Virus record (IMG/VR): IMGVR_UViG_3300029732_000280
DNA length: 64,000 nt
Source: a virus
Taxonomy: Duplodnaviria; Heunggongvirae; Uroviricota; Caudoviricetes
Strand: one strand, 5' to 3'
The notes beneath the pieces were generated by a model. That model searched no databases. It had not been told where the DNA came from and was given only the letters and a program-made list of their open reading frames with translations. Position 1 is the first letter of the stretch, and the number at the start of each line of letters is the position of its first letter. The translations under genes were made by a program, and so were the position numbers. Positions 7,568 through 37,995 of this stretch are shown piece by piece.

Positions 7568-9928
7568 TTATCTTACATACCTCTTCCGCTGGCTGCCGTC
7601 GCGCATCGTATGCCCGTCATAATAGCTTGCGGTATTGCGGTAATCTTCGATATTGGAATCCATCTCTACCTCGGTCTTGGTGTCATCGAACCAGTGGACC
7701 GTAAACTTCAGCGGTGAATGGATCGTGATGGAGAGGAGGAATGCCTTGCAGTGTTCTTCGGTCACTTCATTCAGAAAGGCCACCGTACCATCCCGCCCCG
7801 CCGGGAGGTTCTTCATCCACTCGATTGCCTTTTCCCTTCGTTCATAGTCGCCCTCCAGTTCTTCCCAGTAGTCTTCCATATAGTCGAGCTGTTCGGTCAG
7901 TTTCTGCTCAGTGTCCGTGTCCTTCTGAATATCACACTCCAGTTTCTCAATGAGCTTTTTCTTCTCCTCAATAGAAGCAGGGTCGATCATCTCGTCACCG
8001 AGAAGTTCCAGACGGGTCTGCATCACATCCACCTGACTTTTCAGGATCCGGATCTTCTTACTGGTGCTTTCCACACTGGTGTGTGCGGCCGCTATCTGCT
8101 TTTTATAAAAAGCACGGTCGCGTTCCATAAAATCCAGCTTCTGAATGCTCTCCAGCCGTGCAAGCATCTGGCTTACAAAAGAATCTGCTTCCGTGGTGAA
8201 GTTGTCATACTGCTCTTTGAACCGGCCGCTCATGATGTCTGCCACAGCCACGTTGTCATGGATGGGCTTAAGCGTCAGCCGGAACCGCTCCAGAACTGCT
8301 TTACGGAAGGCTCGGACAACCTGTTCCTCGTATACTTTTTCTGCATGGCAGATACGTTTTCCTGTCGTCCGGCTGCTCGTCGGGCACCGCCAGATGGGAT
8401 AGTTCCCATTTCCGTTTGTCACATGGAAAAAGCGGCCGCACTCCCCGCAGATTAGTCTTTGGGAAAACGCTCTCGGCTTCTTGCTGGATCTTGTCCTGTT
8501 ATATAAATCGCTGTTTACTTTTACAACTTCCTGTGCCTTTTCAAACAGGTCCTCGTCAACGATTGCCGGATGATGGTTCCGGACAAAATACTGAGGAACT
8601 TCGCCTTTGTTGTCCCGGACTTCATGTGTCAGGTAATCCGATGTGAACTTCTTCTGGATAAGGACTGCACCCATGTACCGCTCGGCACGGACGATCCGCG
8701 TGATATTCCCGCCTGTCCATCCATCCAGCAGATCACTGTTTAACTGCCCTTTCTTGGATTTTTTCTTTCTTACTCTCACTGCGTCGGTGACAGGAGCCGG
8801 AATCTTGTCCATGTTCAGTCCCCTTGCAATCTCCGTATAGGCTTTCCCTTCCACAACTTCATGGAAAATGCGCCGGACGACCCTGGCTTCTTCCTCAACG
8901 ATCTCAATATCTTTATACTCATATCCGCTCTCGGAGGTAACCATCTTCCCATTGTAGCGGTATCCGTACATGATCTTGTTTGGAACATCCCCCTTCGGAA
9001 AGCGCATCTTCTGCCCCAGCCGGATGTTGCTGGAAATGCTGCGGCTTTCTTCCTGTGCAATGGCTGCCAGTGTCGTAAGGATGAAGTCGCTGGTCGGGTC
9101 TGCCGTATCCAGATTTTCTTTCTCGAACAGAATCGTTACCCCGCAGTCATGCAGGACATCCAGTGCACTCATAAAGTCAGCCGTGTTTCGGGCAAATCGT
9201 GATATGGACTTGCACACAATGCGGTCGATCTTCCCGTCCTTACAATGGCGCATCAGTCGGCGGAATCCGGTTCTCTTTTCCTTTGAAGTGCCGGAGATGC
9301 CGTAATCGGAGTACACACCGACTGCATTCCATGCCGGATTATTTTCAATCAGCTGGTTAAAGTATTTTTCCTGCGTTTCATAGGAGTTCTCTTGGTCGCT
9401 CATGTCCGTAGAAACGCGGATGTAAGCTGCCACATTAAGGGTTCCGGCTTTCTTTTTGGTAGCCCGGAAGGTCGCCGTCGAAACGAACTTGTTATCCTGC
9501 GGTTCTTCCGGTGTGAAGAGCTTCGTAAACTCACTCTCCATACTGCTCTGCAGCCGTTCTACAATGTCCGGCTCTGCCATGACCTTTTTGGCATCCAGAG
9601 CTTTCTGGATAAGAGCTGTGATACCGGCGTCCACGATGTCTTTTGATTTTTGGGGTGTCTGTTTTTTATCTGATGCGTTTTTGGGTTTTTGTTGAGTAGA
9701 CCTGCCCTGGTGCGTATCAGCCAGTGGTAAAAAAGAAGCTGTGGCAGCATCCGTACTTTGACGAACATCTGCCACAGCTTCCACAGGTTTCTTTTTCCCA
9801 AGAGCGGCTTCCAGTAAAGCCGAGACATCCACAGCAGATGCATTTACTCTCTTCTGCTGTTTCTGCTGTACTGTATTCTTCACAGTCTTTTTCTGCAGAT
9901 TTGCAAGGAAATCCGTACCAGTACTCAT
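7568..9928 (-). CDS. Large serine recombinase (786 aa) with a ~160-aa basic N-terminal extension.
   Basis: AAYIRVSTDMSDQ, SISRFARN, Cys-rich zinc-ribbon region CGECGRFFH...CPTSS. ATG with RBS GGAAAGGAG. Confidence 0.9.
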   Translation of the reverse strand: MSTGTDFLANLQKKTVKNTVQQKQQKRVNASAVDVSALLEAALGKKKPVEAVADVRQSTDAATASFLPLADTHQGRSTQQKPKNASDKKQTPQKSKDIVDAGITALIQKALDAKKVMAEPDIVERLQSSMESEFTKLFTPEEPQDNKFVSTATFRATKKKAGTLNVAAYIRVSTDMSDQENSYETQEKYFNQLIENNPAWNAVGVYSDYGISGTSKEKRTGFRRLMRHCKDGKIDRIVCKSISRFARNTADFMSALDVLHDCGVTILFEKENLDTADPTSDFILTTLAAIAQEESRSISSNIRLGQKMRFPKGDVPNKIMYGYRYNGKMVTSESGYEYKDIEIVEEEARVVRRIFHEVVEGKAYTEIARGLNMDKIPAPVTDAVRVRKKKSKKGQLNSDLLDGWTGGNITRIVRAERYMGAVLIQKKFTSDYLTHEVRDNKGEVPQYFVRNHHPAIVDEDLFEKAQEVVKVNSDLYNRTRSSKKPRAFSQRLICGECGRFFHVTNGNGNYPIWRCPTSSRTTGKRICHAEKVYEEQVVRAFRKAVLERFRLTLKPIHDNVAVADIMSGRFKEQYDNFTTEADSFVSQMLARLESIQKLDFMERDRAFYKKQIAAAHTSVESTSKKIRILKSQVDVMQTRLELLGDEMIDPASIEEKKKLIEKLECDIQKDTDTEQKLTEQLDYMEDYWEELEGDYERREKAIEWMKNLPAGRDGTVAFLNEVTEEHCKAFLLSITIHSPLKFTVHWFDDTKTEVEMDSNIEDYRNTASYYDGHTMRDGSQRKRYVR

Positions 9929-11042: not shown

Positions 11043-11120
11043 CATATTCTTTAACATTCAGCTAATTCACCTCGCAATAATGTTTATGTACGCCCCGCCC
11101 TGTAAGGACGGGGACTGTTT

Positions 11121-12584
11121 TTAGATACGGGATGCAAAGTCAAGTGCGATCCAGCCTGCACCGGATTTCAGCTTGCCCCAGCCCTTTGCAGAACCAGCAC
11201 CGGCAGCTTCTGCCACGATGGTAAACACGCCCTTTCCGGTGTAATAACCGGTCTTACCGTAATTCGTGCCCGGTCCCTTGCGGATGTTGAGGTCTTTAAT
11301 GGATACACGCACAGTGTACGGGACTGAAGACTTCGGTTCCGGGTAGACGGCCTTACCCGCCGGGTCAAAAACATAATAGCCCGGATTCTTATCCGCGCAC
11401 TGCTTTGCATAGGTGAGGTCGTGGAACGCACCTTTCTGGGAAGCGGCATTCTGCCAGCTCTTACGGACACGGTACCAGCCGGAAATGGTGGTGCTTCCAG
11501 CAGCCGCATTGTACTGCGTCAGGTTCCAACGCTCGATGATATTGCAGAGATCCTGCACATAGGTGTGACTGGTAGCATAGCCACCATCCTTGATGATCTG
11601 TGCCGCTTTCTTGTAATCAGTGCAGCCTGCCAGACCCTCGTAGCGTTTCCTGCTGCCGTTCATCGCACCGAGCAGATATGCCGCATGGTCGGCAATGGAG
11701 TCTTCCACACAGGCGTACTTACGGAAGTCAGCGGTGATCGTGACCATCGAACCGTCATCGTTCTGCTCCTGCGTTTTCTTGGTATAGACGGACTTGCCAT
11801 CCCAACTGCTGCCGCTCCAGCTGTTCCCGGAAAGCGAAGTCTTCATGCCGAAGCAGTTATTGGCATTCTGTGCCAGCTCAGATTTGCCGTAGCCGGATTC
11901 CAGAATGAACTGTGCCATCGACACGCAGGCAAGGATGCCCGTGGTTTTCTGGTTCGCAGTAAACAGCGGACCGATCTTTGCCACGGCTTCTGCTTCCGAG
12001 AGATTCTTGAGCGAAGAAGCCTGCATGCCGGATGAGGATGAACCGCCCAGTGCTACAGTTACCCTTGCGGCCAGATCACCCAGGCGGGCATACAGCCAGT
12101 TTCCAGGGCAGCTTTTGTTGGCAAACCAGCGGTGAACGGTCAGCACCATTTCATCTGCCGCCGGAACATAGTTGAGTGTCTTATTTTTATCACCCAGCCA
12201 CAGGAGCTTCTTCTTCCCGTTACGCTTGCAGATATCGATGCAGAGCTTGACGAGAGAGTCATATACGGCACTGTTCATGGCATACGGCTCATTCATGTCG
12301 CTGGCGCACTCGATGGTGACAGCCCTCTGGTCATTGGCATTGCTGGACGAACACCAGCTGCGGTTCTTTTCCTCGACACAAAGTGACACCCGCCCATCCG
12401 TACCGATGCCGTAGTTGCAGCTTGCCTGACGGCTCGTGCTGGTAAAGCAGCCGCAGATGCTCTCCGCAGAAAGCTGACCGACCACACAATGCGGTGTGAT
12501 GCGGTCGATACTGTGTGTCCTCTGCCCGGAATGGTTCGGGGAGAGCTTGGTGTAAACAACGAGTGGACTATTGGTATATCCCAT
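11121..12584 (-). CDS. Modular endolysin: N-acetylmuramoyl-L-alanine amidase (Amidase_2/PGRP-like), a glucosaminidase domain, a shared wall-binding domain, and a C-terminal SH3b domain.
   Basis: Amidase_2-like N-terminus. FILESGYGKSELAQNANNCFGMK is a glucosaminidase (LytD/FlgJ-type) motif. The C-terminal NIRKGPGTNYGK...GWGKL region is SH3b-like. Confidence 0.85.
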   Translation of the reverse strand: MGYTNSPLVVYTKLSPNHSGQRTHSIDRITPHCVVGQLSAESICGCFTSTSRQASCNYGIGTDGRVSLCVEEKNRSWCSSSNANDQRAVTIECASDMNEPYAMNSAVYDSLVKLCIDICKRNGKKKLLWLGDKNKTLNYVPAADEMVLTVHRWFANKSCPGNWLYARLGDLAARVTVALGGSSSSGMQASSLKNLSEAEAVAKIGPLFTANQKTTGILACVSMAQFILESGYGKSELAQNANNCFGMKTSLSGNSWSGSSWDGKSVYTKKTQEQNDDGSMVTITADFRKYACVEDSIADHAAYLLGAMNGSRKRYEGLAGCTDYKKAAQIIKDGGYATSHTYVQDLCNIIERWNLTQYNAAAGSTTISGWYRVRKSWQNAASQKGAFHDLTYAKQCADKNPGYYVFDPAGKAVYPEPKSSVPYTVRVSIKDLNIRKGPGTNYGKTGYYTGKGVFTIVAEAAGAGSAKGWGKLKSGAGWIALDFASRI

Positions 12585-29246: not shown

Positions 29247-29304
29247 TTGCGTAACCACCTCCTTGCAGGCATGAAAAAAGCCCATCTGCACGGGACAGAC
29301 AGGC

Positions 29305-29360
29305 TAAAAATGGGTATAAAAATGGGTATAAAAATACCCCGTCAGATTTCTCCAACGGGG
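29305..29360 (-). terminator. Intrinsic terminator closing the AbiE cassette. Contains a duplicated 12-mer (TGGGTATAAAAA x2 on the plus strand).
   Basis: Minus-strand CCCCGTTGGAGAAATCTGACGGGG hairpin followed by TATTTTTATACCCATTTTTATACCCATTTTT. Confidence 0.75.
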
Positions 29361-29370
29361 TTGCTACCGA

Positions 29371-30210
29371 TTATTGAATTATACTCCATAAGAGCATTGT
29401 GCTCTCCATAATATCCTCATAGCTGATATCAGTAGCATACGGATATTTCTTCTGGTAGGACTTCCAAAGTGTATGTAACTGTGCGTCATCACTGACGGCA
29501 GCCATAATTTTGGGTGCTTCCTCTTTCAGATTTTCGGTGCTTCTTTTCTTACAGGTTGCCTCAAATGCCTTTTTCAGCACATCAGCATCGATGTCCTGCT
29601 CGTAAATAGAAAGCAGGGTCTTGATATCATAGAAGTCTCTCATTCGGGTATTCAAAAGACCTCTTGCAAGGACCGTCTGAAGTTTTTCTGCCAGAATTGT
29701 TTCCAAATTATACGACCAAAGGCTGATGGAACGGTCATCCAAGAGCAATTTATAGTTGTACTCGATTGCTCTTGGCGTGATAACATCTCCTGTAGAAATA
29801 TCAATCTTCATCGGTGTAACGAGTTTTCCCATCACGGCATTCATAGTAAACCGAATACCCGGATATTCCATTTCATCCATGATATTGGAAACTTCCTTAA
29901 CCTCAAAGGTCACTCCATCGCCAAGGTCGATGTCCTTGATTTCATCCACAATCCGTCTGGCATCTTCTGCCGACAGATTCTGATTTTTAATACTCGTATC
30001 GATATCCATCGTGGACCGCAATGCTACGCCAACCATTGCTGTCACCAGCATTCCGCCTTTGATGATAAAATTATCTTTATACTGCGAATTGGCAACTCTC
30101 TCAAGGAAACGCTCCATCATATAAATTCGCATGAGCGTTCTGGCATCTGCCTTGTTTTCCTTTGCCACATTCTTAATTCTTCCCTTAACCTGTTCAGGTG
30201 TCAGCTGCAT
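29371..30210 (-). CDS. abiEii: AbiEii-type nucleotidyltransferase toxin (type IV TA / abortive infection, DUF1814).
   Basis: FIIKGGMLVTAMVGVALRSTMDIDTS matches the GG..L....R.T.DID nucleotidyltransferase motif of AbiEii/AbiGii. Start is 1-2 nt after the AbiEi stop. Confidence 0.8.
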   Translation of the reverse strand: MQLTPEQVKGRIKNVAKENKADARTLMRIYMMERFLERVANSQYKDNFIIKGGMLVTAMVGVALRSTMDIDTSIKNQNLSAEDARRIVDEIKDIDLGDGVTFEVKEVSNIMDEMEYPGIRFTMNAVMGKLVTPMKIDISTGDVITPRAIEYNYKLLLDDRSISLWSYNLETILAEKLQTVLARGLLNTRMRDFYDIKTLLSIYEQDIDADVLKKAFEATCKKRSTENLKEEAPKIMAAVSDDAQLHTLWKSYQKKYPYATDISYEDIMESTMLLWSIIQ

Positions 30211-30211
30211 T

Positions 30212-30796
30212 TTACAATAATACCCCCATATATCTGCGGATCACATTATCAACCCGAAACAGCTTTGCATATTCCATGAGTCGATTTAGGTCCTTGTTTC
30301 TTCTGGAAACATATGTCTTCAGAACGGAATTGAAATCCTGTGCTTCAATACTGCTCCGGCTTCTCATCAGATCACAAATCGTTCGTTCCAAGTCATACAT
30401 TGGAATCATGTTCCCATCGTTGTCTTTCACAATGATCTTTCCGACATCCAGTAATTCCCGTTTTACCGTATATACTTTACAACTTCCATCCGCTATAAGT
30501 CGATGTGCATTGTAACCGCTGTATATGGTAAGTGTGTGGACAAACGGTTCTCTGTCTGTCAGACCATGATAATAAAAGGCCTCATCATGTGAAAAAACAG
30601 CATTCGGGCATCTCTTATGAAGCACATATAACTCATCGACCCAATCCGATCCCGTAGAATACACACCACGGCTGACCGGCTCCAATCCGTTTTCTCGAAC
30701 ATATTTGTAAAATTTAAATTTTGAAATTCCAGATTTTCCCGCGATTCTCGGCGTAAGGTAATCATGATTTTGAACTAATCTTGTCATCTCATTCAT
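30212..30796 (-). CDS. abiEi: AbiEi-type antitoxin/transcriptional autoregulator (N-terminal AbiEi_4 wHTH plus C-terminal AbiEi domain).
   Basis: GISKFKFYKYVRENGLEPVSRGVY is AbiEi_4-like. Gene order AbiEi then AbiEii. Operator palindromes lie in its promoter. Confidence 0.75.
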   Translation of the reverse strand: MNEMTRLVQNHDYLTPRIAGKSGISKFKFYKYVRENGLEPVSRGVYSTGSDWVDELYVLHKRCPNAVFSHDEAFYYHGLTDREPFVHTLTIYSGYNAHRLIADGSCKVYTVKRELLDVGKIIVKDNDGNMIPMYDLERTICDLMRSRSSIEAQDFNSVLKTYVSRRNKDLNRLMEYAKLFRVDNVIRRYMGVLL

Positions 30797-30813
30797 AGAA
30801 TCACCATCCTTCC

Positions 30814-30841
30814 GTGCTTATATTGTAATCGAAATAAGCAC
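30814..30841 (-). promoter_or_regulatory. AbiE promoter (TTGACT-17-TACAAT on the minus strand, about 30822..30852) overlapping inverted repeat IR1 (GTGCTTAT-N12-ATAAGCAC), a putative AbiEi operator.
   Basis: Perfect 8-bp arms. Near-consensus promoter hexamers seen directly. Confidence 0.6.
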
Positions 30842-30860
30842 GATAGTCAAGTAAAATCAA

Positions 30861-30900
30861 ACGAGCGTGCTTATTTCACATTTAATATATGCACGCTCGT
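30861..30900. promoter_or_regulatory. Inverted repeat IR2 (ACGAGCGTGC-N20-GCACGCTCGT), second putative AbiEi operator. GTGCTTAT half-site recurs inside.
   Basis: Perfect 10-bp arms seen directly upstream of the AbiE promoter. Confidence 0.5.
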
Positions 30901-30914
30901 CGAGTTTTATTCTG

Positions 30915-31456
30915 TCAAAATTTGTCAAAATCAGCTTGCGAGGCCAGCTCTTTGTACGGATAGTCGTCGTTCTGCCGTTCCGTGAACATATCATTGACCA
31001 ACCCGATGGTCAGCAGGTCGAGGTCGGCGATGCTGATACCGAGCTGTACACAGCGCAGCAGAAAGAGCGGGGTGGTCATTTCCCGCTCACTTTTGCGAGG
31101 TTTTTTCTGGATTCCACCTCGGTCTGCACATTCAGACCCCACAGTTCGATCAGCTGGGGCAGGATCTGATAAATGGAGAAGGTGTTGAACTGGTCCAGGA
31201 ACTCCTCCGGGCTGTCCGGCACCTTTGCCGGGTCTGCATGACGGGCCATCAGCCATGCCAGGTCCTCGAACATTTCCAGACTGAACAGGTCGAGGTTGGA
31301 ATTGTCCTCATCGTTCTCTCCCACGCTCTTTTCCAGCTGGCGCAGGTCTTTGTAAATGTCACGGCCAAACTTGATGCGGTACAGGCGGGGTACAGCGGCA
31401 CTTGCCTTAAAGGTGACTTCCTTGCCATCGATCTCGATTTTCTTCGTAACTGCCAT
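30915..31456 (-). CDS. Tail assembly chaperone GT fusion made by a -1 programmed frameshift at 31100..31106.
   Basis: The -1 frame after A_AAA_AAC continues as KKPRKSEREMTTPLFLLRCVQLGISIADLDLLTIGLVNDMF... to the stop at 30915. Confidence 0.6.
31076..31456 (-). CDS. Tail assembly chaperone G (gpG-like).
   Basis: Position between major tail protein and tape measure. KFGRDIYKDLRQLE motif. Slippery site near its 3' end. Confidence 0.7.
   Translation of the reverse strand: MAVTKKIEIDGKEVTFKASAAVPRLYRIKFGRDIYKDLRQLEKSVGENDEDNSNLDLFSLEMFEDLAWLMARHADPAKVPDSPEEFLDQFNTFSIYQILPQLIELWGLNVQTEVESRKNLAKVSGK
31100..31106 (-). other. -1 programmed ribosomal frameshift heptamer A_AAA_AAC (zero frame R-K-N).
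   Basis: Codon phasing verified against the gpG reading frame. Canonical X_XXY_YYZ slippery sequence. Confidence 0.65.
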
Positions 31457-31515
31457 AATCGTAATCCTCCATAAATTTCATGTAAAATTGGCAGAGCCGA
31501 AGCCCTGCCATATAT
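31457..31515 (-). repeat. Downstream copy of a ~50-bp direct repeat flanking the SPFH gene (hairpin GCAGGGCTTCGGCTCTGC, then TTACAT, then GGAGGATTACGATTATG).
   Basis: Compare with 32352..32405. Contains a terminator-like hairpin plus the RBS/start context of gpG. Confidence 0.55.
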
Positions 31516-31523
31516 CGTGTTTC

Positions 31524-32351
31524 TTACTCTGCCGAGTCAATGCTGACCAGTGCATTACCGCCGCTCACAGTGGGCAGCTTGCCATCCCACTTCTGAACCT
31601 TCTGGTAATCGATCAGCGTATCGGACAGGCTTTCTGCCAGTTTGCGGTTTGCCTCTGCCTGTGCGTCTGCGGCAATGGAAGTTTTCTGTGCTTCCGCCTC
31701 TGCATTGGTGATCGCCACCTGCTTATCCGCTTCTGCCTTGGCAATGGCAGCTTCATTCTCAATCTTCTGCTTATCTGCGTTCTGCTGTGCAATGGACTTC
31801 TGCTGGATGGCTTCGTTATAGGCATCCTCGAAATTCATGTCGTTGATGACGACCTTGTTTACGAACACAACGTCCTCACCATATTTCTGCACAATGGACT
31901 CTGCCAGCTTCTGCTGTGCCAGAGGCTCGATCTTGGTGCGGTTTGTCACCTCATTGGGGGCAAGTTCAGCCATCGCAGACTTAATGGCCGATGCCACCAG
32001 CTCGTCACCGACCAGACTCTTGATGTCGGACACATTCGCATACAGCCATGCACTCTTCTCAGGAAGCACCTGATAGGTCACGATCACATCAGCGGCATAC
32101 ACCGGAGTCTTGTCGGAGGCTTCGCCCCAGACCTGCGCTTCGATGTGCTTATCCTGCTGCTTGTTGTTGACCTTGTGGATGCTCTGCACAAAGGGAATGC
32201 AGAAGTTGAGCTTGCCGCTCTGGATGGTGGTTTCCTGGATCTGACCGAAGCTGGTCTTCACGCCCGTGTAACCGGTGGGGATGATGTGGAACGAGCAGAC
32301 AGCCAGCACCAGAACGATGATCACTGCGAACAAAGGAAAAATCTTCTTCAT
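31524..32351 (-). CDS. SPFH/band-7 (prohibitin/HflC-like) membrane protein, a moron inserted between the major tail protein and gpG.
   Basis: N-terminal TM helix. PTGYTGVKTSFGQIQETTIQSGKLNFCIPFVQSIHKV is an SPFH signature. Ala/Glu/Gln-rich coiled-coil C-terminus. Confidence 0.8.
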   Translation of the reverse strand: MKKIFPLFAVIIVLVLAVCSFHIIPTGYTGVKTSFGQIQETTIQSGKLNFCIPFVQSIHKVNNKQQDKHIEAQVWGEASDKTPVYAADVIVTYQVLPEKSAWLYANVSDIKSLVGDELVASAIKSAMAELAPNEVTNRTKIEPLAQQKLAESIVQKYGEDVVFVNKVVINDMNFEDAYNEAIQQKSIAQQNADKQKIENEAAIAKAEADKQVAITNAEAEAQKTSIAADAQAEANRKLAESLSDTLIDYQKVQKWDGKLPTVSGGNALVSIDSAE

Positions 32352-32405
32352 AATCGTATACCTCTTTATAATAATGTAAGCAGAGCCAAAGCCCTGCGGT
32401 GTGTG
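32352..32405 (-). repeat. Upstream copy of the SPFH-flanking direct repeat (hairpin GCAGGGCTTTGGCTCTGC, then TTACAT, then AGAGGTATACGATTATG).
   Basis: Seen directly. 18 of 19 hairpin identity and a shared GAGGwwTACGATTATG start context. Confidence 0.55.
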
Positions 32406-32413
32406 CCGGTCAC

Positions 32414-33028
32414 TTAGCCCTGCGGCTCCTCGGTATGACCGGTATCTTCGGTGTCCACAGCTTCTGCCTGCGGCTCATAGACCGCATCGTACCACTTGTT
32501 ATAGACATCATCGGTGGTGTTGGTACCGGTCTTGGCCTTGACATAACCGTTTGCCAGAGGGGTTGACTGCAGGTTCAGGGTGTCCGTCTTGACTTCCTTG
32601 CTGTCCTCGTTGGTCTCACCCTCGATGGACGGACGGCTTGCCACACAGTTGTACAGCACATGACGGATGTGGCGCTGGTCGCCATCGAACTCGAACAGGA
32701 AGGCGAAATGCTCCAGTTCCACATTGGCGTTCTCAGCAAGCACGCCGTTGCCATCCAGTTCCTCGTGCATGATGTCCGTGAGGAAACTCTCCGGGATCAG
32801 CGCGATCTCCAGATCACCCTCGTAGCCGGAGTTGTTATTCACGACATAATAGGCGATATTGTCCGCATAGAACGGCTCGATCTCACCGTTAGCATCCATA
32901 GAAAGACTGACTGCACCGGGGATGCGGACCGGCTTTGCATAGGTGACACTGCCATCTTCGTCAAAGGTTGCCTTAGCATAATGGCAGTTTTTCAGGCCAA
33001 ATTTGACCTTATTGCTTTTCTTCGACAT
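32414..33028 (-). CDS. Major tail protein (TP901-1/phi13-like).
   Basis: KFGLKNCHYAKATFDEDGS N-terminus typical of siphovirus major tail proteins. Position before gpG and tape measure. Confidence 0.8.
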   Translation of the reverse strand: MSKKSNKVKFGLKNCHYAKATFDEDGSVTYAKPVRIPGAVSLSMDANGEIEPFYADNIAYYVVNNNSGYEGDLEIALIPESFLTDIMHEELDGNGVLAENANVELEHFAFLFEFDGDQRHIRHVLYNCVASRPSIEGETNEDSKEVKTDTLNLQSTPLANGYVKAKTGTNTTDDVYNKWYDAVYEPQAEAVDTEDTGHTEEPQG

Positions 33029-33062: not shown

Positions 33063-33380
33063 TCACACGGTCAGCTCATACAGGACTTCATACATCTTTT
33101 CGGTTTCGATCCAGACTTCACTTTTCTCGTAGTAGAGTTCATGTGCAGTCAGGACTTCTTCAATATTTGCTTCCATATCCGGGTCTTTGTAATCGGTGTA
33201 CACCTCAATGTCCAGCCGGTTGAAATGATGGTACACAAGGTTATCCGCACCAAAGTTCTCGGCTTTCGGATACAGGAAGCAGATAAACGGTGGATCAGGA
33301 CTCTCCCCTTCTGCGAAATGGTCATACGCATAGGGAAGCCCCATCTCCTCCACCAGAGCTTTTACTTCTTCGTGGGTCAT
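33063..33380 (-). CDS. Tail terminator-like protein (position-based).
   Basis: 105 aa, located between the tail-completion protein and the major tail protein. Confidence 0.35.
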   Translation of the reverse strand: MTHEEVKALVEEMGLPYAYDHFAEGESPDPPFICFLYPKAENFGADNLVYHHFNRLDIEVYTDYKDPDMEANIEEVLTAHELYYEKSEVWIETEKMYEVLYELTV

Positions 33381-34436: not shown

Positions 34437-34462
34437 AACCGGCTCCTCCTTTCCTGGCTTTC

Positions 34463-35668
34463 TTAGCCCTGCGGTGCCATCTGCAGAAGCTGTACGGCTT
34501 CCGGCAGGATCAGCTTGCCATCCACACGCTGGGTGGTCAGGAAGCCGACCTGATCAGTACGGGCATACAGCTCGTTCAGACGGCGGAAGGTGCGGTTCTG
34601 GCGATCAGCCACCCAGTAGTAGCTGTAATCGCCAAAGGCCATGACCTTGCTGCCGCCCTTGATCTCCGGCATGAAGGCGGAAGTCTTCAGAGGACGGTTC
34701 AGCAGGGTATCAGGCTTGCCGATCTCCAGACCCGGCTTCCAGATATAGTTGCCGTTGTTGTCCTTGATGGTCATCAGCTGCAGCACCAGGGCTTCGTTGC
34801 AGAGGAACTGTGCCTTCTTGCGATACGGAGCCTTCAGTGCATAGTAGAGCTTGAAGATCTCATCGAAGGTAACGGCATCCTTCTGGGCAGCGGTCACACC
34901 GACCTTGGCACCGCCAGTCTCTGCCAGCAGACCCAGAGGCTTGCCCACACCATCGCCGGTGATAAAGGCGCGCTCCTCTGCGTTGCCCATACGCACACCG
35001 AAACGGCGGGCAATATAGGTGGCAAGGTCGAATGCGGAGTCGTTCAGAAGCTCGTTAGAAATCTTGATCATAGTGCCCAGCTTGTACGCAGACAGCATGG
35101 TCTGACCGAAGGTGGTATCGCTCTCCGGGATCTCCTCACCCTCATCGATCCAGCTTGCCTCACCGGTATCCTCTGCGATGGGGATCTTACGGGTGCCGGA
35201 GCTGGTGCGGATGACGGTCGCCAGACCACGGAAGATGTTGTTCTCCTCCAGTGCCTCCACCAGTTTCTTCTCGAACTCGTCGGGAACGGTAAAGCCGCCC
35301 TCGGTATCCTCACCCACAGACAGGGCATTGCGGACCTCGCCGTAATGGCCGCGGTTGCGGATCATGTTCCAGAAGTTATCGGCATACTCGGCAGTGGCGG
35401 TCGGCTTGACATCCTTCTTGGCACCGTTCTTCGGGTCAGTGTGGACAGGACTGGAAGTCGGTGCGGACAGCTGTGCCTCGATCTGTGCCTGCTGCTCCAG
35501 ACGCTCGATCTCTGCACCCAGGTCCTTGACCTCCTGTGCCATCTTGTTGTACTGCTCCACGGCTTCAGCCTTAACCAGACCGTTCTCGCCGCGGTTCTTC
35601 TCCAGAAAGTCCTTGGTCTGCTCCCAGAGAGTGTTGCGCTTGGTGCGCAGTTCCAGAATCTTACTCAT
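34463..35668 (-). CDS. Major capsid protein, HK97 fold.
   Basis: 401 aa. N-terminal coiled-coil delta-like region then capsid core. Follows the ClpP-like prohead protease. Confidence 0.9.
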   Translation of the reverse strand: MSKILELRTKRNTLWEQTKDFLEKNRGENGLVKAEAVEQYNKMAQEVKDLGAEIERLEQQAQIEAQLSAPTSSPVHTDPKNGAKKDVKPTATAEYADNFWNMIRNRGHYGEVRNALSVGEDTEGGFTVPDEFEKKLVEALEENNIFRGLATVIRTSSGTRKIPIAEDTGEASWIDEGEEIPESDTTFGQTMLSAYKLGTMIKISNELLNDSAFDLATYIARRFGVRMGNAEERAFITGDGVGKPLGLLAETGGAKVGVTAAQKDAVTFDEIFKLYYALKAPYRKKAQFLCNEALVLQLMTIKDNNGNYIWKPGLEIGKPDTLLNRPLKTSAFMPEIKGGSKVMAFGDYSYYWVADRQNRTFRRLNELYARTDQVGFLTTQRVDGKLILPEAVQLLQMAPQG

Positions 35669-35725: not shown

Positions 35726-36592
35726 TCACTTCATGCACTCAAGCTGCTTCATCAGGATATTGTAGGGGATACTGCCATCCTCGGTCTTGCCGTCCATGTC
35801 AAGGACAGGCCCCGGATTGGCAGGCGGTTCTGCCGGAGGGGTTTTCTCCGGCTCTTTGGCTTTTGGCTCGGTCTGTTCCGGCTTCACACCCAGACGGTTC
35901 AGGACGATTAGATCCATCTGACGGCTGGAGAAAAGATGCCCTGCCGTATCCTTTTGGAACGGCTTCTTTTCTCCGCCCCCGCCCGGTTCACTGTCGGGGT
36001 CTTCTTCCGGATCCTCCGGGTCTGCCGGGTCACTGTCCGGCTCCTCCTCTTTCTTTGCAAAGAGGATCTCGTCTGCAAAGCCCAGCTCCACCGCCTTCTT
36101 CGCATTCATCCAGGTCTCATTGCTCATGAGGTTGGCGATACGGGCATGGCTGAGGCCGCTCTTCGCTGCGTAGGCATTGATGATGCTCTCCTTGACTTCG
36201 TTCAGCACCTCGATGGCTTTCTCCATGTCCTTGGTGTTGCCCATCGCAACGGTGCTGGGGTCATGGATCATCAGCATGGCAACGGGACTCATCTGAACAG
36301 TATCACCGGCCATCGCCACAACGGATGCCGCCGAAGCTGCAATCGCATCGACCTTGACCGTAATGCTACCCTTGTAGTCCTTAAGCATGGTATAGATCTC
36401 GGCAGCGGCGAACACATTGCCGCCCGGAGAGTTGATCCAGACGGTCACATCCCCCTCGCCGGATTCCAGCTCATCCCGGAACATCTGCGGCGTGATCTCA
36501 TCACCCCAGAACGATTCCTCATCAATGGGGCCTTCCAGCCGGAGGATTCTGGTATCGTCACTGTTTTTGATCCAGTTCCAGAATTTCTTCAT
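35726..36592 (-). CDS. Prohead maturation protease, ClpP/S14 family.
   Basis: INSPGGNVFAAAEIY...SAASVVAMAGD ClpP-like catalytic region. Acidic Pro-rich C-terminal scaffold-like tail. Confidence 0.85.
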   Translation of the reverse strand: MKKFWNWIKNSDDTRILRLEGPIDEESFWGDEITPQMFRDELESGEGDVTVWINSPGGNVFAAAEIYTMLKDYKGSITVKVDAIAASAASVVAMAGDTVQMSPVAMLMIHDPSTVAMGNTKDMEKAIEVLNEVKESIINAYAAKSGLSHARIANLMSNETWMNAKKAVELGFADEILFAKKEEEPDSDPADPEDPEEDPDSEPGGGGEKKPFQKDTAGHLFSSRQMDLIVLNRLGVKPEQTEPKAKEPEKTPPAEPPANPGPVLDMDGKTEDGSIPYNILMKQLECMK

Positions 36593-37995
36593 CGGGTTCT
36601 CCTTCCATTTTTCCGTGGCTTATTCTCACTCAGCCGGTTATCGCTGTCAGGTTCTTCTTCCGGGTCTTGTTCCTCTGGCTGTGTCTGCTTGGGCTGATTC
36701 TGCTGGACGGCGGCCGCTTTGTTCTGCTGCGCCGCCCCTGCATCCTTCAGCTTCACATAGCCGCCGTTCAGGTAGTAGTCGTCACCGCCCTCCTCTGCCG
36801 GGATGAGATCCATGTTCTCCAGACGATGCACATCATTCGGAGAGAGGAAACCGTTGCTGATTCCGGTCGCATAACCGTTCATCCGGCTCTGGTAATCGCC
36901 ACGGAGCAGACCATCCACATTGAATTTCGGGAAGTAGGTATCCTGCTCCTCCTCCAGCAGCAGATCCTTGATGATGCCCTGCTCGATGCGGACAAGCCAC
37001 GGGGTCAGGGAGTGCATTACGAAGTTCAGCGACTGGTATTCAATGTTGGAGAAGGTCGCCCTGGACAGATCGGCTACCAGATGCGGCGGCACACGGAAGA
37101 TGCGGCAGATTTCCGTCACGGAAAACTGCTTTGTCTCCAAAAACTGGCTGTCCTCCGGTGGCAGGGAGATCGGTTTGTAGGCCATACCCTCTTCCAGCAC
37201 TGCCACACGATGGGCATTGGCTGCACCGCCATATGCTGCCTCCCAGCTATCCCGGATACGGTTCGGGTCTTTCACAACGCCGGGATGTTCCAGCACACCG
37301 CTTGGCTGTGCGCCGTTCTTGAAGAAGGACGAGCCATACTTGTCCACCGCAATGGATGTGCCGAGGCTGTTCTTCATCATGGCGATCGGTGAAAAACCGA
37401 TCAGACCATTGAAGCCCAGTCCCGGCACATGGAAGATCTCGTCCCGGCGGAAGTAGAGATCTTTATTCTGCTCTCCCGGAACTTCATCCGTGTATGCGTG
37501 GTAGATATAGTAGAGCTCGCCGCTCTCATCCCGGTCCACTTCGACATTTTCCGGTAAAAGCGGATACAGACCCAGTACCGTATTCTTGCCATCCCGGACG
37601 ATCTGTGCGTAGGCGTTGCCCCAGAGGAGCAGATGGGTCATCAGCGTTTCCCAGAAGACAAAGGATGTCATCTCCGGGTTGGGCTGGCGATACAGAATCT
37701 TGTACAGCGGATGATCCCGCGCCTTTTCCTTGTTTCCATTATCGTCTGTCACCCGGTAGAGATGCAGCGGCAGTGCCGCAATGGACTCCGCCAGCAGACG
37801 AACACAGGCATACACAGTCGGGATCTGCATGGCGGCTTTCTCATCCACCTGCTCCCCGGCATTGGAACGCCCAAACACAAAGGTCTGCCCGGAATCGCGG
37901 ACGTTATCCGTGACCTTCGGCAGACCTTCTTTTGGCTGTTCTGTTTTGGGAGAATCCCTTGGATTCTCAAACCCCATCCATTCCCAGAATCCCAT
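36589..37995 (-). CDS. Portal protein, HK97 family.
   Basis: 468 aa. FVFWETLMTHLLLWGNAYAQIVRD portal core. Between TerL and the protease. Confidence 0.9.
   Translation of the reverse strand: MGFWEWMGFENPRDSPKTEQPKEGLPKVTDNVRDSGQTFVFGRSNAGEQVDEKAAMQIPTVYACVRLLAESIAALPLHLYRVTDDNGNKEKARDHPLYKILYRQPNPEMTSFVFWETLMTHLLLWGNAYAQIVRDGKNTVLGLYPLLPENVEVDRDESGELYYIYHAYTDEVPGEQNKDLYFRRDEIFHVPGLGFNGLIGFSPIAMMKNSLGTSIAVDKYGSSFFKNGAQPSGVLEHPGVVKDPNRIRDSWEAAYGGAANAHRVAVLEEGMAYKPISLPPEDSQFLETKQFSVTEICRIFRVPPHLVADLSRATFSNIEYQSLNFVMHSLTPWLVRIEQGIIKDLLLEEEQDTYFPKFNVDGLLRGDYQSRMNGYATGISNGFLSPNDVHRLENMDLIPAEEGGDDYYLNGGYVKLKDAGAAQQNKAAAVQQNQPKQTQPEEQDPEEEPDSDNRLSENKPRKNGRRTR

Follow-up and report, generated by a model that had tools for sequence, protein, structure and literature searches.

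The window, by which we mean the whole 64,000-nucleotide stretch of DNA that was analysed, belongs to an element that is a temperate siphophage of gut Clostridia and that encodes three large serine recombinases. On the minus strand of the window, a gene for an SPFH/band-7 protein lies between the major tail protein gene and the gene for the gpG-like tail assembly chaperone, as the initial annotation had described, and all the features that it had reported there were recovered at the same positions:

32414..33028, minus strand: major tail (tube) protein gene, its product ending in EEPQG before the stop codon; upstream boundary of the cassette
32352..32413, minus strand: upstream junction copy (U), from sequence reading and alignment to the downstream copy
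32380..32397, minus strand: U hairpin, GCAGGGC-UUUG-GCUCUGC, with a 7-bp stem that includes one G.U pair
32374..32379, minus strand: TTACAT box directly 3′ of the U hairpin
31524..32351, minus strand: SPFH/band-7 gene, 275 aa (Pfam Band_7, PHROG 200)
31457..31523, minus strand: downstream junction copy (D), from sequence reading and alignment to the upstream copy
31490..31509, minus strand: D hairpin, GGCAGGGC-UUCG-GCUCUGCC, 8 bp in the folding run, with an 18-nt core at 31491-31508
31480..31485, minus strand: TTACAT box after the D hairpin
31076..31456, minus strand: gpG-like tail assembly chaperone gene (PHROG 709); downstream boundary of the cassette
31100..31106, minus strand: A_AAA_AAC slippery heptamer in the gpG frame, where a -1 slip leads into the gpGT extension that ends at 30915

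The gene at the upstream boundary encodes the tail tube (Pfam PF06488 at 9.5e-07; PHROG 88 'major tail protein' at 1e-57). The gpG call for the downstream neighbour is based on its position between the tail-tube and tape-measure genes, its match to PHROG 709 and a -1 frameshift arrangement, in which a -1 ORF (30915-31256) overlaps gpG and extends 54 codons to 30915. This flanking gene has both the position and the -1 slippery heptamer by which gpG/gpGT chaperones are recognised. The slot beside the cassette, between gpGT and the tape-measure gene, is a hot spot in which Abi and toxin-antitoxin (TA) cargo is found. No partner gene (NfeD, a second SPFH subunit or FtsH) was found near the SPFH gene, no ftsH gene is present within the region of the window examined, and the neighbouring tail tube and gpG proteins contain no NfeD domain. 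The sole ClpP-like protein is the prohead protease, encoded 3.4 kb upstream of the SPFH gene. A weak NfeD1b_N match in a related locus (L150) had raised the idea of a link between the SPFH protein and the ClpP/NfeD-like prohead protease. This link was dropped because the enzyme is an ordinary prohead protease at that distance and the SPFH domain is predicted to be extracytoplasmic.

The assignment of the 275-aa product to the SPFH/band-7 proteins, proposed originally from the letters of the sequence, was confirmed by a profile search, in which Pfam Band_7/SPFH (PF01145) matched residues 23-209 at 1.1e-16, with 61.9 bits against a curated cut-off of 23.6. An AlphaFold2 monomer model with a mean pLDDT of 85.4 comprises a transmembrane (TM) helix (residues 4-19), an SPFH domain (21-174), a coiled-coil helix of 66 residues (176-241) and a disordered C-terminus. 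The model therefore contains the membrane anchor, SPFH alpha/beta domain and long coiled-coil helix that make up the build of cage formers. Full-length Foldseek matches were to HflC, HflK, prohibitin (PHB1/2), erlin, stomatin and QmcA at 1e-14 to 1e-12, while NCBIfam returned only sub-threshold HflC matches (28.7 vs 427 bits and 22 vs 134.4 bits). The subfamily is phage-borne, corresponding to PHROG 200, a phage 'lipoprotein' family whose profile matched residues 1-266 at 2e-38. The 'lipoprotein' label was rejected because a lipobox Cys is not conserved across lineages; the Cys of the LAVC motif is confined to the crown clade, and L144, L150, L164, L078 and L160 have no Cys there. In all lineages KK, KKR or KKHR precedes the TM helix. 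Such a short positive N-terminus followed by one TM helix leads to a predicted N-in topology, and by the positive-inside rule the bulk of the protein is predicted to be extracytoplasmic.

SPFH homologs with 40-73% identity were found in the early or DNA-metabolism modules of other phages, and more distant ones in large phage genomes (about 136-252 kb), such as those of Acinetobacter and Bacillus phages. The carriers include Vi01-like phages and kayviruses, which we take to be virulent. The early and DNA-metabolism locations, together with the large phage genomes, point to a role in lytic development. No experimental function for any phage SPFH protein was found in the literature searched. At E <= 0.01 the SPFH protein had no match among the PADLOC-DB 2.0 defence models, and its AbiEi and AbiEii neighbours were matched strongly in the same search.

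Relatives were found via their proteins, giving a comparison set of about 230 related loci; megablast of the region against 50,697 GenBank phages yielded one 193-bp fragment match only. Tube-gpG adjacency was scanned in 80 loci of species-representative genomes. All relatives with a tail-tube identity of 68% or less, as well as L162, have a tube-gpG gap of 8-65 nt without an SPFH gene. When the tail-terminator, tube and gpG proteins were concatenated and placed in a neighbour-joining tree, the SPFH-bearing loci all fell into one clade, and SPFH-less tips occurred inside its crown only. At the level of these sequence comparisons, this demonstrates a single gain of the SPFH gene at the base of one clade. 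An extra gene between two genes that adjoin in relatives is a hallmark of morons (PMC3594210), and it is seen here by comparison with the outgroups, L162, and L013 and L022. The initial annotation held that the SPFH protein is not a tail component, and the comparison agrees in that an accessory gene has been inserted between two genes that are direct neighbours in related phages. Its further suggestion, a cassette inserted by recombination at this junction, holds for the insertion between adjoining genes, but the gain was single and old and the hairpin was there beforehand.

Since its acquisition, the SPFH gene has diverged in step with the genes beside it, down to about 71% amino-acid identity. 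It has done so under purifying selection, with dN/dS of 0.04-0.16 and the same dS as its flanking genes. Identities for tube, SPFH and gpG are 72, 78 and 78% in L144, and 74, 71 and 71% in L150. We conclude that the cassette is a real, long-resident, moron-like accessory gene that is stably inherited.

A classical moron, close to what the initial annotation had in mind, would be an independently transcribed lysogenic-conversion gene that is on in the repressed prophage and acts in superinfection exclusion or in FtsH-tuned lysogeny. The element is temperate, as its serine recombinases attest, and the gene encodes a membrane protein, sits between genes that adjoin in relatives and has a terminator-like hairpin at its 3′ side. 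The Abi/TA hot spot next to it is also where HK97 carries its exclusion moron gp15 (PMC3594210), and earlier work has counted prophage SPFH genes among morons or virulence factors (PMC5834331; PMC9872710). However, no sigma-70-like promoter was found upstream of the SPFH gene on the coding strand in a simple scan for sigma-70-type sites. Deviant base composition, another mark of morons, is not a feature of this gene: its GC/GC3 of 0.530/0.692 matches that of its flanks (0.535/0.68-0.71), unlike the neighbouring AbiE pair at 0.40-0.42, which is clearly foreign. Its co-divergence with the tail genes spans dS > 1.5, and the homologs in early or DNA-metabolism modules and large phage genomes, as well as the lack of a PADLOC match, also count against a classical moron, which we consider possible but doubtful. 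The idea of prophage expression in particular is weakened by the failure to find a promoter and by the homologs in early and DNA-metabolism regions. As no promoter of its own was found, the SPFH gene most likely relies on read-through together with the tail genes for its expression, although a phage-specific or non-consensus promoter could exist.

The two junctions that bracket the SPFH gene share an order of parts. Copy U consists of a 16-nt spacer, the hairpin, the TTACAT box, an A-rich spacer, a GAGG Shine-Dalgarno (SD) sequence, TATACGATT and the SPFH ATG, and copy D of a 14-nt spacer, the hairpin, AAUUUUACAU, a spacer, GGAGG, ATTACGATT and the gpG ATG. Their gapped local alignment has 54 columns, of which 39 are identical, and 10 gap positions, and its score of 41 was reached by 0 of 5000 shuffles (mean 12.4, maximum 26). 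The blocks common to both copies are the hairpin (17/18), TTACAT (6/6) and the RBS-to-ATG segment GAGGnnTACGATTATG (14/16). What had been described as a ~50-bp direct repeat is thus a genuine pair of related junctions, although it takes the form of three conserved blocks split by unrelated spacers. Within the 64 kb, the hairpin GCAGGGCTTYGGCTCTGC occurs exactly twice (32380-32397 and 31491-31508) against 0.12 occurrences expected, even with three mismatches, and GAGGNNTACGATTATG is found only at the SPFH and gpG gene starts.

The D hairpin has a folding energy of -19.3 kcal/mol with z = -3.6, compared with z = -1.3 for the U copy. Only the D copy passed a simple terminator scan, which gave it a 9-bp stem, one pair beyond the folding run (31489-31510), a UUCG loop and an AAUUUUA tail. 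The hairpins are without a strong U-tract and may act as attenuators, stabilisers or processing sites. Rfam contained no family for either of them, its single chance match to a miRNA (E = 0.75) lying elsewhere. The TTACAT and TACGAT elements were flagged at the D copy as a promoter (TTTACA-17-TACGAT), which was rejected for driving the following gene because its -10 box stops one base short of the ATG and the TACGAT element is not conserved; L144, L150 and L164 conserve TACAT but not TACGAT. A motif had also been reported to recur at the 3′ ends of the capsid and major tail genes, and it is real, with just two copies of the 13-mer CCGCAGGGCTAAG, one at the stop codon of the capsid gene and one at that of the tail-tube gene. 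The capsid copy is restricted to the crown clade and has neither a hairpin after it nor any associated structure, and the likeness of the two gene ends is probably incidental.

Hairpin matches in 2.09 Mb of loci searched were located at the tube/gpG junction in 299 of 299 cases. SPFH-less relatives with 60-63% tail-tube identity have an identical hairpin sequence at that junction, and stems are kept by compensatory change, for example GAGGCAGG/TCTGCTTC vs GAGGCGGG/TCCGCTTC. Joint travel of the hairpin and the SPFH gene was rejected on two grounds: the 73%-identical SPFH gene of an unrelated phage, L147, has another terminator behind it, one that is AT-rich, and the hairpin is already present in the SPFH-less outgroups. 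Comparison of the loci places the hairpin before the SPFH insertion and indicates that it was not imported by the cassette. The terminator-like hairpin that the SPFH gene was thought to own exists, in so far as D passes the terminator scan, but it is the ancestral hairpin ahead of gpG and is not cassette-borne. In every lineage that carries SPFH, a YTACAT box lies 3′ of each of the two hairpins; it is missing at the SPFH-less outgroup junction.

The degree of likeness between U and D varies among lineages. In L164 they are identical at 44 of 48 positions, in a sequence different from that of the window (39/54), and in the L071 group one G-to-A change is common to both copies. Their similarity is weak in L150 and absent in L144, the two basal lineages, in which the upstream hairpin differs in sequence and the layout of hairpin, TACAT and SD is present at both junctions. 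The two copies have been homogenised in some lineages, that of the window included, and could have originated either by duplication at insertion or by later conversion. Alternatively, the junctions could be unrelated by duplication or recombination and represent independent punctuation, each with a terminator and a strong RBS, that is alike through shared constraint. The layout retained in L144 and L150 despite their differing hairpins is in line with such constraint, as is the functional conservation of the hairpin in outgroups. Against it, the likeness reaches into the SD-ATG spacer (TACGATTATG), which is normally unconstrained, and the 48-nt sequence shared by the L164 junctions is quite different from the window's. 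The common G-to-A change of the L071 group and an excision allele that joins the copies exactly inside the common 18-mer argue in the same direction. We regard independent punctuation as improbable.

The SPFH gene is dispensable and has been lost or broken in 8/74 contigs. L013 and L022, which come from two different samples, exhibit a precise 889-bp excision, the absent segment being exactly that between two hairpin copies that match perfectly over their 18 nt. What is left is exactly one hybrid copy of the repeat. Retention of exactly one copy by SPFH-less relatives is the outcome for which the initial annotation had proposed that such relatives be inspected. The flanks of both loci are 100% identical to those of the SPFH-bearing L020 over 3015 and 1518 bp. 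These flanks and their position inside the crown of the SPFH clade led us to reject L013 and L022 as ancestral empty sites. With flanks identical to L020 and a single old gain, presence or absence of the gene among close relatives reflects loss, not gain. The other broken alleles comprise internal deletions of 371 bp, common to three contigs, and of 509 bp, in one contig, and frameshifts in two contigs (L010 and L066), which are single-base changes and may be metagenome sequencing errors.

The SPFH-less and truncated alleles could be assembly artefacts, with the gene possibly essential, given that these are metagenome assemblies in which repeats can cause mis-joins and that the L010 and L066 frameshifts may be errors. 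This is very improbable, as the precise deletion was recovered in two contigs (47.8 and 29.4 kb) from different samples and the 371-bp deletion in three contigs, and outgroup clades as a whole, isolate genomes included, have no SPFH gene. The usual assembler k-mers are, moreover, longer than the 18-nt repeat. It is scarcely credible that the SPFH protein contributes to tail structure or assembly, for example as a membrane platform on which the tail or tape measure is assembled: its gene lies co-oriented inside the tail operon and is conserved to the same degree as the tail genes, but more distant relatives with homologous tails all lack it, the eight losses and disruptions concern otherwise intact close relatives, homologs elsewhere lie outside structural modules, and the N-terminal charges predict an SPFH domain that faces outside the membrane.

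We favour, with a probability of roughly 0.65, an account in which the SPFH gene is an old accessory cassette in the late tail operon that is expressed by read-through and whose product forms a membrane cage. The gain itself is evident from the tree, and an ancestor of the clade acquired the gene between the tail-tube and gpG/gpGT genes. The pre-existing GC-rich hairpin upstream of the gpG RBS may serve as an attenuator or mRNA-stability element, which would separate the abundant tube protein from the low-abundance chaperones. Following insertion, a junction of hairpin, YTACAT and SD stands ahead of both SPFH and gpG, and gene conversion or re-duplication could keep the two copies alike. Because these copies are direct repeats, recombination or replication slippage in the 18-nt hairpin core could excise the 889-bp unit precisely and leave one hybrid copy. 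While the phage develops, the SPFH protein may assemble into a membrane-anchored cage on the outer side of the host membrane and might thereby modulate an enclosed membrane protein, perhaps an FtsH-type protease or a component of phage DNA entry or lysis. Such a cage would confer a fitness benefit without being required for virion assembly. The biochemical function is suggested by likeness to distant SPFH proteins with 17-24% identity.

A bolder combination of ideas is unlikely and is offered as speculation, namely that the hairpin, YTACAT and RBS constitute a portable recombination boundary and that the SPFH protein represents a phage-specific class of extracytoplasmic cage that sequesters a host machine. 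The boundary unit could allow a lineage to gain, homogenise and precisely shed accessory genes within the tail operon, and the sequestered machine could be FtsH or a DNA-entry or lysis factor. If true, this would provide a first mechanism for the large PHROG 200 family, along with natural isogenic knock-outs.

Current views stand: it is already established that tail operons carry accessory genes and that phage mosaicism arises through short homologies. The SPFH cassette is a well-documented and fairly ordinary phage accessory gene. The SPFH/prohibitin-like proteins of PHROG 200 are nevertheless among the larger phage protein families, with carriers among phages of gut Firmicutes, enterobacteria, Acinetobacter, Bacillus and marine bacteria. 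The locus offers an unusually clean natural experiment in a very common human-gut temperate phage (>200 contigs plus isolates), with natural alleles that are identical over 4.5 kb of compared flanks and differ only by the precise excision or internal deletion of the SPFH gene. Isolate lysogens include Blautia faecis DFI.3.66 and Faecalibacterium intestinale CLA-AA-H281. It also documents a short structured intergenic element as a substrate for cassette loss and for the concerted evolution of gene boundaries.

The gene 15 moron of HK97 (Juhala et al., 2000; Cumby et al., 2012; reviewed in PMC3594210) is likewise an accessory membrane-protein gene in the tail operon of a temperate siphophage, located between genes that adjoin in relatives and dispensable for virion assembly. 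Its gpGT/tape-measure slot neighbours that of the SPFH gene and holds Abi/TA cargo in the present phage. HK97 gp15 differs in being a small YebO-like protein whose gene has deviant GC, carries a promoter and a terminator of its own and is expressed from the prophage, whereas the SPFH gene encodes a 275-aa scaffold, has a flank-like composition and a long history of vertical inheritance, and no promoter was found for it.

The best sequence and fold matches to the SPFH protein are the HflK and HflC of the E. coli HflK/HflC-FtsH complex (PDB 7VHP/7VHQ/7WI3/9CZ2), which have an N-terminal TM helix, an SPFH domain, a long coiled coil and the N-in/C-out topology that is predicted here. Their identity to it is 18-24%, with equivalog scores far under the cut-off, and they are paired subunits, whereas the phage has a single SPFH gene. 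QmcA, which faces the cytoplasm, is a full-length fold match at 4e-12. In SPFH-NfeD operons (QmcA-YbbJ, PDB 8Z5G; PH1511-PH1510) the SPFH gene has an NfeD partner, where here its neighbours are the tail tube and gpG.

Phage-borne kin include gp21 of the Faecalibacterium phage FP_Toutatis ('prohibitin family protein'), a 'band 7 protein' of the Escherichia phage Skarpretter, MbpS of kayviruses and proteins of Vi01-like phages; tblastn matches among phage-borne SPFH proteins have 23-44% identity. These other genes lie in early, DNA-metabolism or lysis regions instead of between a tail tube and a chaperone, and flanking direct repeats and natural excision alleles, undescribed for them, are both documented here. 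Work associated with Susskind and Botstein, with Clark et al. in 2001 and with Juhala et al. in 2000 reportedly dealt with the mosaic genomes of lambdoid phages, with their conserved boundary (linker) sequences and with recombination at short homologies. Lambdoid linkers resemble the junctions described here in that short conserved intergenic boundary sequences act as recombination points for the gain and loss of modules. Unlike those linkers, the present element is a structured hairpin with an RBS, which exists as a direct repeat in one genome, has been homogenised and has been precisely excised.

In this part of the window every gene is encoded on the minus strand, and the SPFH gene lies between those of the major tail protein and the gpG-type chaperone. 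From portal to tape measure, the features in order of transcription are as follows, with the recombinase genes added last:

36589-37995, minus strand, portal
between the portal and capsid genes, minus strand, ClpP-type prohead protease
34463-35668, minus strand, HK97-type capsid
capsid to tail-tube interval, minus strand, head-tail connector genes and tail terminator (33063-33380)
32414-33028, minus strand, major tail protein (Pfam tail tube; PHROG 88 at 1e-57)
31524-32351, minus strand, SPFH ORF of 275 aa (Pfam Band_7/SPFH)
31076-31456, minus strand, gpG-type chaperone of 126 aa, assigned by position and frameshift heptamer
30212-30796, minus strand, AbiEi, paired with AbiEii, 3′ of gpG
29371-30210, minus strand, AbiEii, paired with AbiEi, 5′ of the tape measure
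after the AbiE pair, minus strand, tape measure of 1984 aa
975-2807, 5233-7533 and 7568-9928, minus strand, three large serine recombinases (Resolvase and Recombinase domains; 610, 766 and 786 aa)

An A_AAA_AAC heptamer (31100-31106) is in the gpG reading frame, and a −1 slip there leads into 54 further codons, to 30915, which is the usual G/GT arrangement. The window also encodes an endolysin, a large terminase, a primase-helicase and the three serine recombinases, and the element is a temperate siphophage. The recombinase genes are grouped at one end of the element.

The initial annotation had described an SPFH gene flanked by direct repeats, and both parts of this description were borne out. 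The ORF matches Pfam Band_7/SPFH at 1.1e-16 (61.9 bits; cut-off 23.6), and the intergenic regions on either side of it, upstream (U, 32352-32413) and downstream (D, 31457-31523), have three blocks in common. These are the 18-nt hairpin GCAGGGCTTYGGCTCTGC (17/18 identical between copies, with just two matches in 64 kb when three mismatches are allowed), TTACAT, and GAGGnnTACGATTATG (14/16 identical and confined to these two sites in the window). Gapped local alignment of U and D gave 39 identities in 54 columns, a score reached by 0 of 5000 shuffles. The hairpin had been called terminator-like, and a terminator scan flagged the D copy, a good stem-loop (−19.3 kcal/mol, z = −3.6, cUUCGg tetraloop); the U copy is weaker (z = −1.3). 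A third strong hairpin, CCCCGTCCTTACAGGGCGGGG (~11086-11110, minus strand, −16.8 kcal/mol), stands where the late operon ends, just 3′ of the endolysin gene (11121-12584), and has TACAT after it in place of a U-tract; hairpin plus TACAT may be the phage's usual transcript punctuation.

A motif reported at both the capsid and tail-tube gene ends was likewise recovered as the 13-mer CCGCAGGGCTAAG (…PQG stop; 34462-34474 and 32413-32425, minus strand), with two matches in the window against 0.06 expected. In the upstream hairpin, CCGCAGGGCT also serves as the 5′ arm (32390-32399). The capsid-end copy of the 13-mer is limited to the crown clade, the close relatives within the SPFH-bearing clade, and has no hairpin after it; the sharing is possibly incidental.

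Protein-guided scans yielded 143 loci from viral contigs and 80 from species-representative bacterial genomes. Tail-tube and gpG genes are directly adjacent, without SPFH, in all genome-scan relatives at or below 68% tail-tube-protein identity and likewise in L162 (77%), with 8-65 nt between the two genes in the SPFH-less genome-scan loci. When tail-terminator, tube and gpG proteins are concatenated and placed in a neighbour-joining tree, all SPFH-bearing loci form one clade with L162 as sister, and every member lacking SPFH or carrying a broken copy is a tip inside the crown. Most simply, the gene was gained once and then lost several times in the recent past. The suggestion of an inserted cassette thus holds in that an extra gene stands between neighbours that adjoin in relatives; the single insertion is, however, ancient rather than recent. 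SPFH divergence keeps pace with that of its neighbours in the two basal SPFH-bearing lineages, L144 (tube 72, SPFH 78 and gpG 78% identical) and L150 (74, 71 and 71%), and its dS equals that of the flanking genes up to saturation. Its dN/dS of 0.04-0.16 is as low as that of the tube and chaperone genes, and the gene is under purifying selection. Its GC and GC3 (0.530 and 0.692) match the composition of its neighbours, whereas the adjoining AbiE pair (GC 0.40-0.42 vs 0.53) is plainly foreign. The SPFH gene is old in this lineage.

The hairpin is older still and was not brought by SPFH. Relatives that lack SPFH and have only 60-63% tube-protein identity show GGGCAGGGCTTCGGCTCTGCCC in the stretch from the tail-tube stop to the gpG ribosome-binding site, and this is the window hairpin sequence, G.U pair and UUCG loop included. 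A search of the collected loci (2.09 Mb) for the 18-mer with up to two substitutions gave 299 matches, every one at the tail-tube/gpG junction, and other lineages have different stem sequences that still pair through clean compensatory changes; the hairpin is therefore a constrained pre-gpG element. An unrelated AT-rich phage carries a 73%-identical SPFH gene with a different terminator after it, and this confirms the hairpin as part of the recipient junction.

At both junctions of every SPFH-bearing lineage, YTACAT begins 0-6 nt after a hairpin; the TACAT box was not found at the junction of outgroups. The U and D copies of L164 are identical at 44 of 48 positions with an entirely different hairpin (GGGGyGGGGAAACCyGCCCC), the L071 group has the same G-to-A change in both copies, and likeness is weak in L150 and absent in L144. 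As this likeness is lineage-specific and dS between the lineages exceeds 1.5, it points to copies that have been homogenised more than once, through gene conversion or re-duplication, and not passively retained from an original duplication. We also observed a 231-aa HNH-AP2 homing endonuclease between the SPFH hairpin/RBS and gpG in L079 (2917-3698), L080 (3378-4073) and L160 (about 5455-6234). The insert took the former gpG ribosome-binding site, and gpG now has a new one.

Losses were counted in the first 80 viral loci, 74 of which have both tail-tube and gpG genes. SPFH is intact in 66 of these and absent in two (L013 and L022); three share a 371-bp internal deletion, one has a 509-bp deletion and two have frameshifts. 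The junction of L013 and L022 reads tail-tube stop, GTGACCGACACACAC, T, GCAGGGCTTCGGCTCTGC, CAATTTTACATGAAATTTTGGAGGATTACGATTATG, gpG. Exactly one hybrid copy therefore remains, made up of the U left flank, one hairpin and the D right flank, as the proposed alignment against relatives lacking the gene was meant to reveal. L013 matches SPFH-bearing L020 at 100.0% identity along 3015 bp of upstream and 1518 bp of downstream flank, and in L020 the two hairpins form a perfect 18-nt direct repeat with a spacing of 889 bp. Given the hybrid copy and the identical flanks, SPFH was excised precisely, by way of the 18-nt repeat, and very recently; two different samples show this allele. SPFH is dispensable for the virion.

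The interval from gpG/gpGT to the tape measure (29292-31075 in the window; the same slot in L001-L232), which corresponds to that of the HK97 gp15 moron (PMC3594210), is a hypervariable hot spot of about 150 to about 4050 bp for cargo, Abi and toxin-antitoxin genes included. Near-identical phages carry AbiEi/AbiEii, Abi_2, YoeB/RelB, a ParE/Phd-like pair, DUF3990, an ATPase_2+DUF234 ATPase, an HTH+DUF6036 nucleotidyltransferase, Fic/DOC, an RT-like ORF or nothing there. Just 5′ of AbiEi, nested imperfect inverted and direct repeats (30813-30909; 35-nt arms, 77% complementary) overlap a promoter-like TTGACT-17-TACAAT (30850-30822) and are probably the operator/promoter of the AbiE cassette. Essentially one prophage was observed across bacterial families or orders, in Blautia faecis DFI.3.66 (L153), Faecalibacterium intestinale CLA-AA-H281 (L154), Clostridium fessum (L155), Blautia sp. 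(L156) and Lawsonibacter MAGs (L158-L160). L153 and L154 match at 99.27% identity across the full 12.6 kb that was compared, and this may reflect an unusually broad host range or recent transfer, or contamination. The tail-tube gene stops short in two loci, L165 (Blautia luti) and L183 (Oribacterium MAG), near residue 133-138, and the truncated gene of L165 abuts an inverted segment with gpG, AbiE and tape measure; these are either rearranged or decaying prophages or mis-assemblies.

The SPFH gene is an accessory gene of long standing, conserved and now and then lost; both the phage family it belongs to and the kind of position it occupies are known already. It is of interest chiefly because this phage family lacks a known function and because there are natural knock-outs whose flanks are identical. 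Since a scan of the upstream sequence for sigma-70-like sites found no promoter, SPFH would be expressed with the late tail operon by read-through. From what is generally known of late operons, the hairpins, which lack a strong U-tract, may act as an attenuator or mRNA-stability element dividing a very abundant protein from low-abundance chaperones. Homologs at 41-78% identity lay in phage genomes in every context inspected, two in the same tail slot and the others in early or DNA-metabolism modules, and the subfamily is phage-borne. More distant homologs occur in isolated phages (FP_Toutatis, Lelie, Skarpretter, phiFN37, and large Acinetobacter and Bacillus phages). A lytic-programme function is favoured over classical lysogenic conversion by the negative promoter scan, by the native composition, and by homologs that sit both in early/DNA-metabolism modules and in the genomes of large phages, some of which we take to be virulent. 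The literature searched on phage SPFH genes offers annotations or speculation only.

The protein is not an HflC orthologue (equivalog scores fall far under the cut-off), nor, on lineage comparison, the conserved lipoprotein of its PHROG 200 label. PADLOC defence models gave no match, and neither NfeD nor a second SPFH partner was found next to the gene. Sequence searches of solved structures returned HflC, prohibitin 1/2, QmcA and HflK at 1e-5 to 1e-3. The AlphaFold2 model (mean pLDDT 85.4) has a TM helix (4-19), an SPFH domain (21-174), a 66-residue helix (176-241) and a disordered tail. Modulation of FtsH, or superinfection exclusion, would be possible roles; the protein could assemble outside the cytoplasm as a ring or cage and modulate a membrane protein of the host while the phage develops. 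Full-length Foldseek matches to the model (1e-14 to 1e-12) are HflC/HflK, prohibitins, erlins, stomatin and QmcA, all of which form membrane-anchored rings or cages, and the modelled architecture is of this cage type. KK, KKR or KKHR precedes the TM helix in all SPFH lineages, so the positive-inside rule predicts an N-in topology with the SPFH domain outside, the same orientation as in HflK/C.
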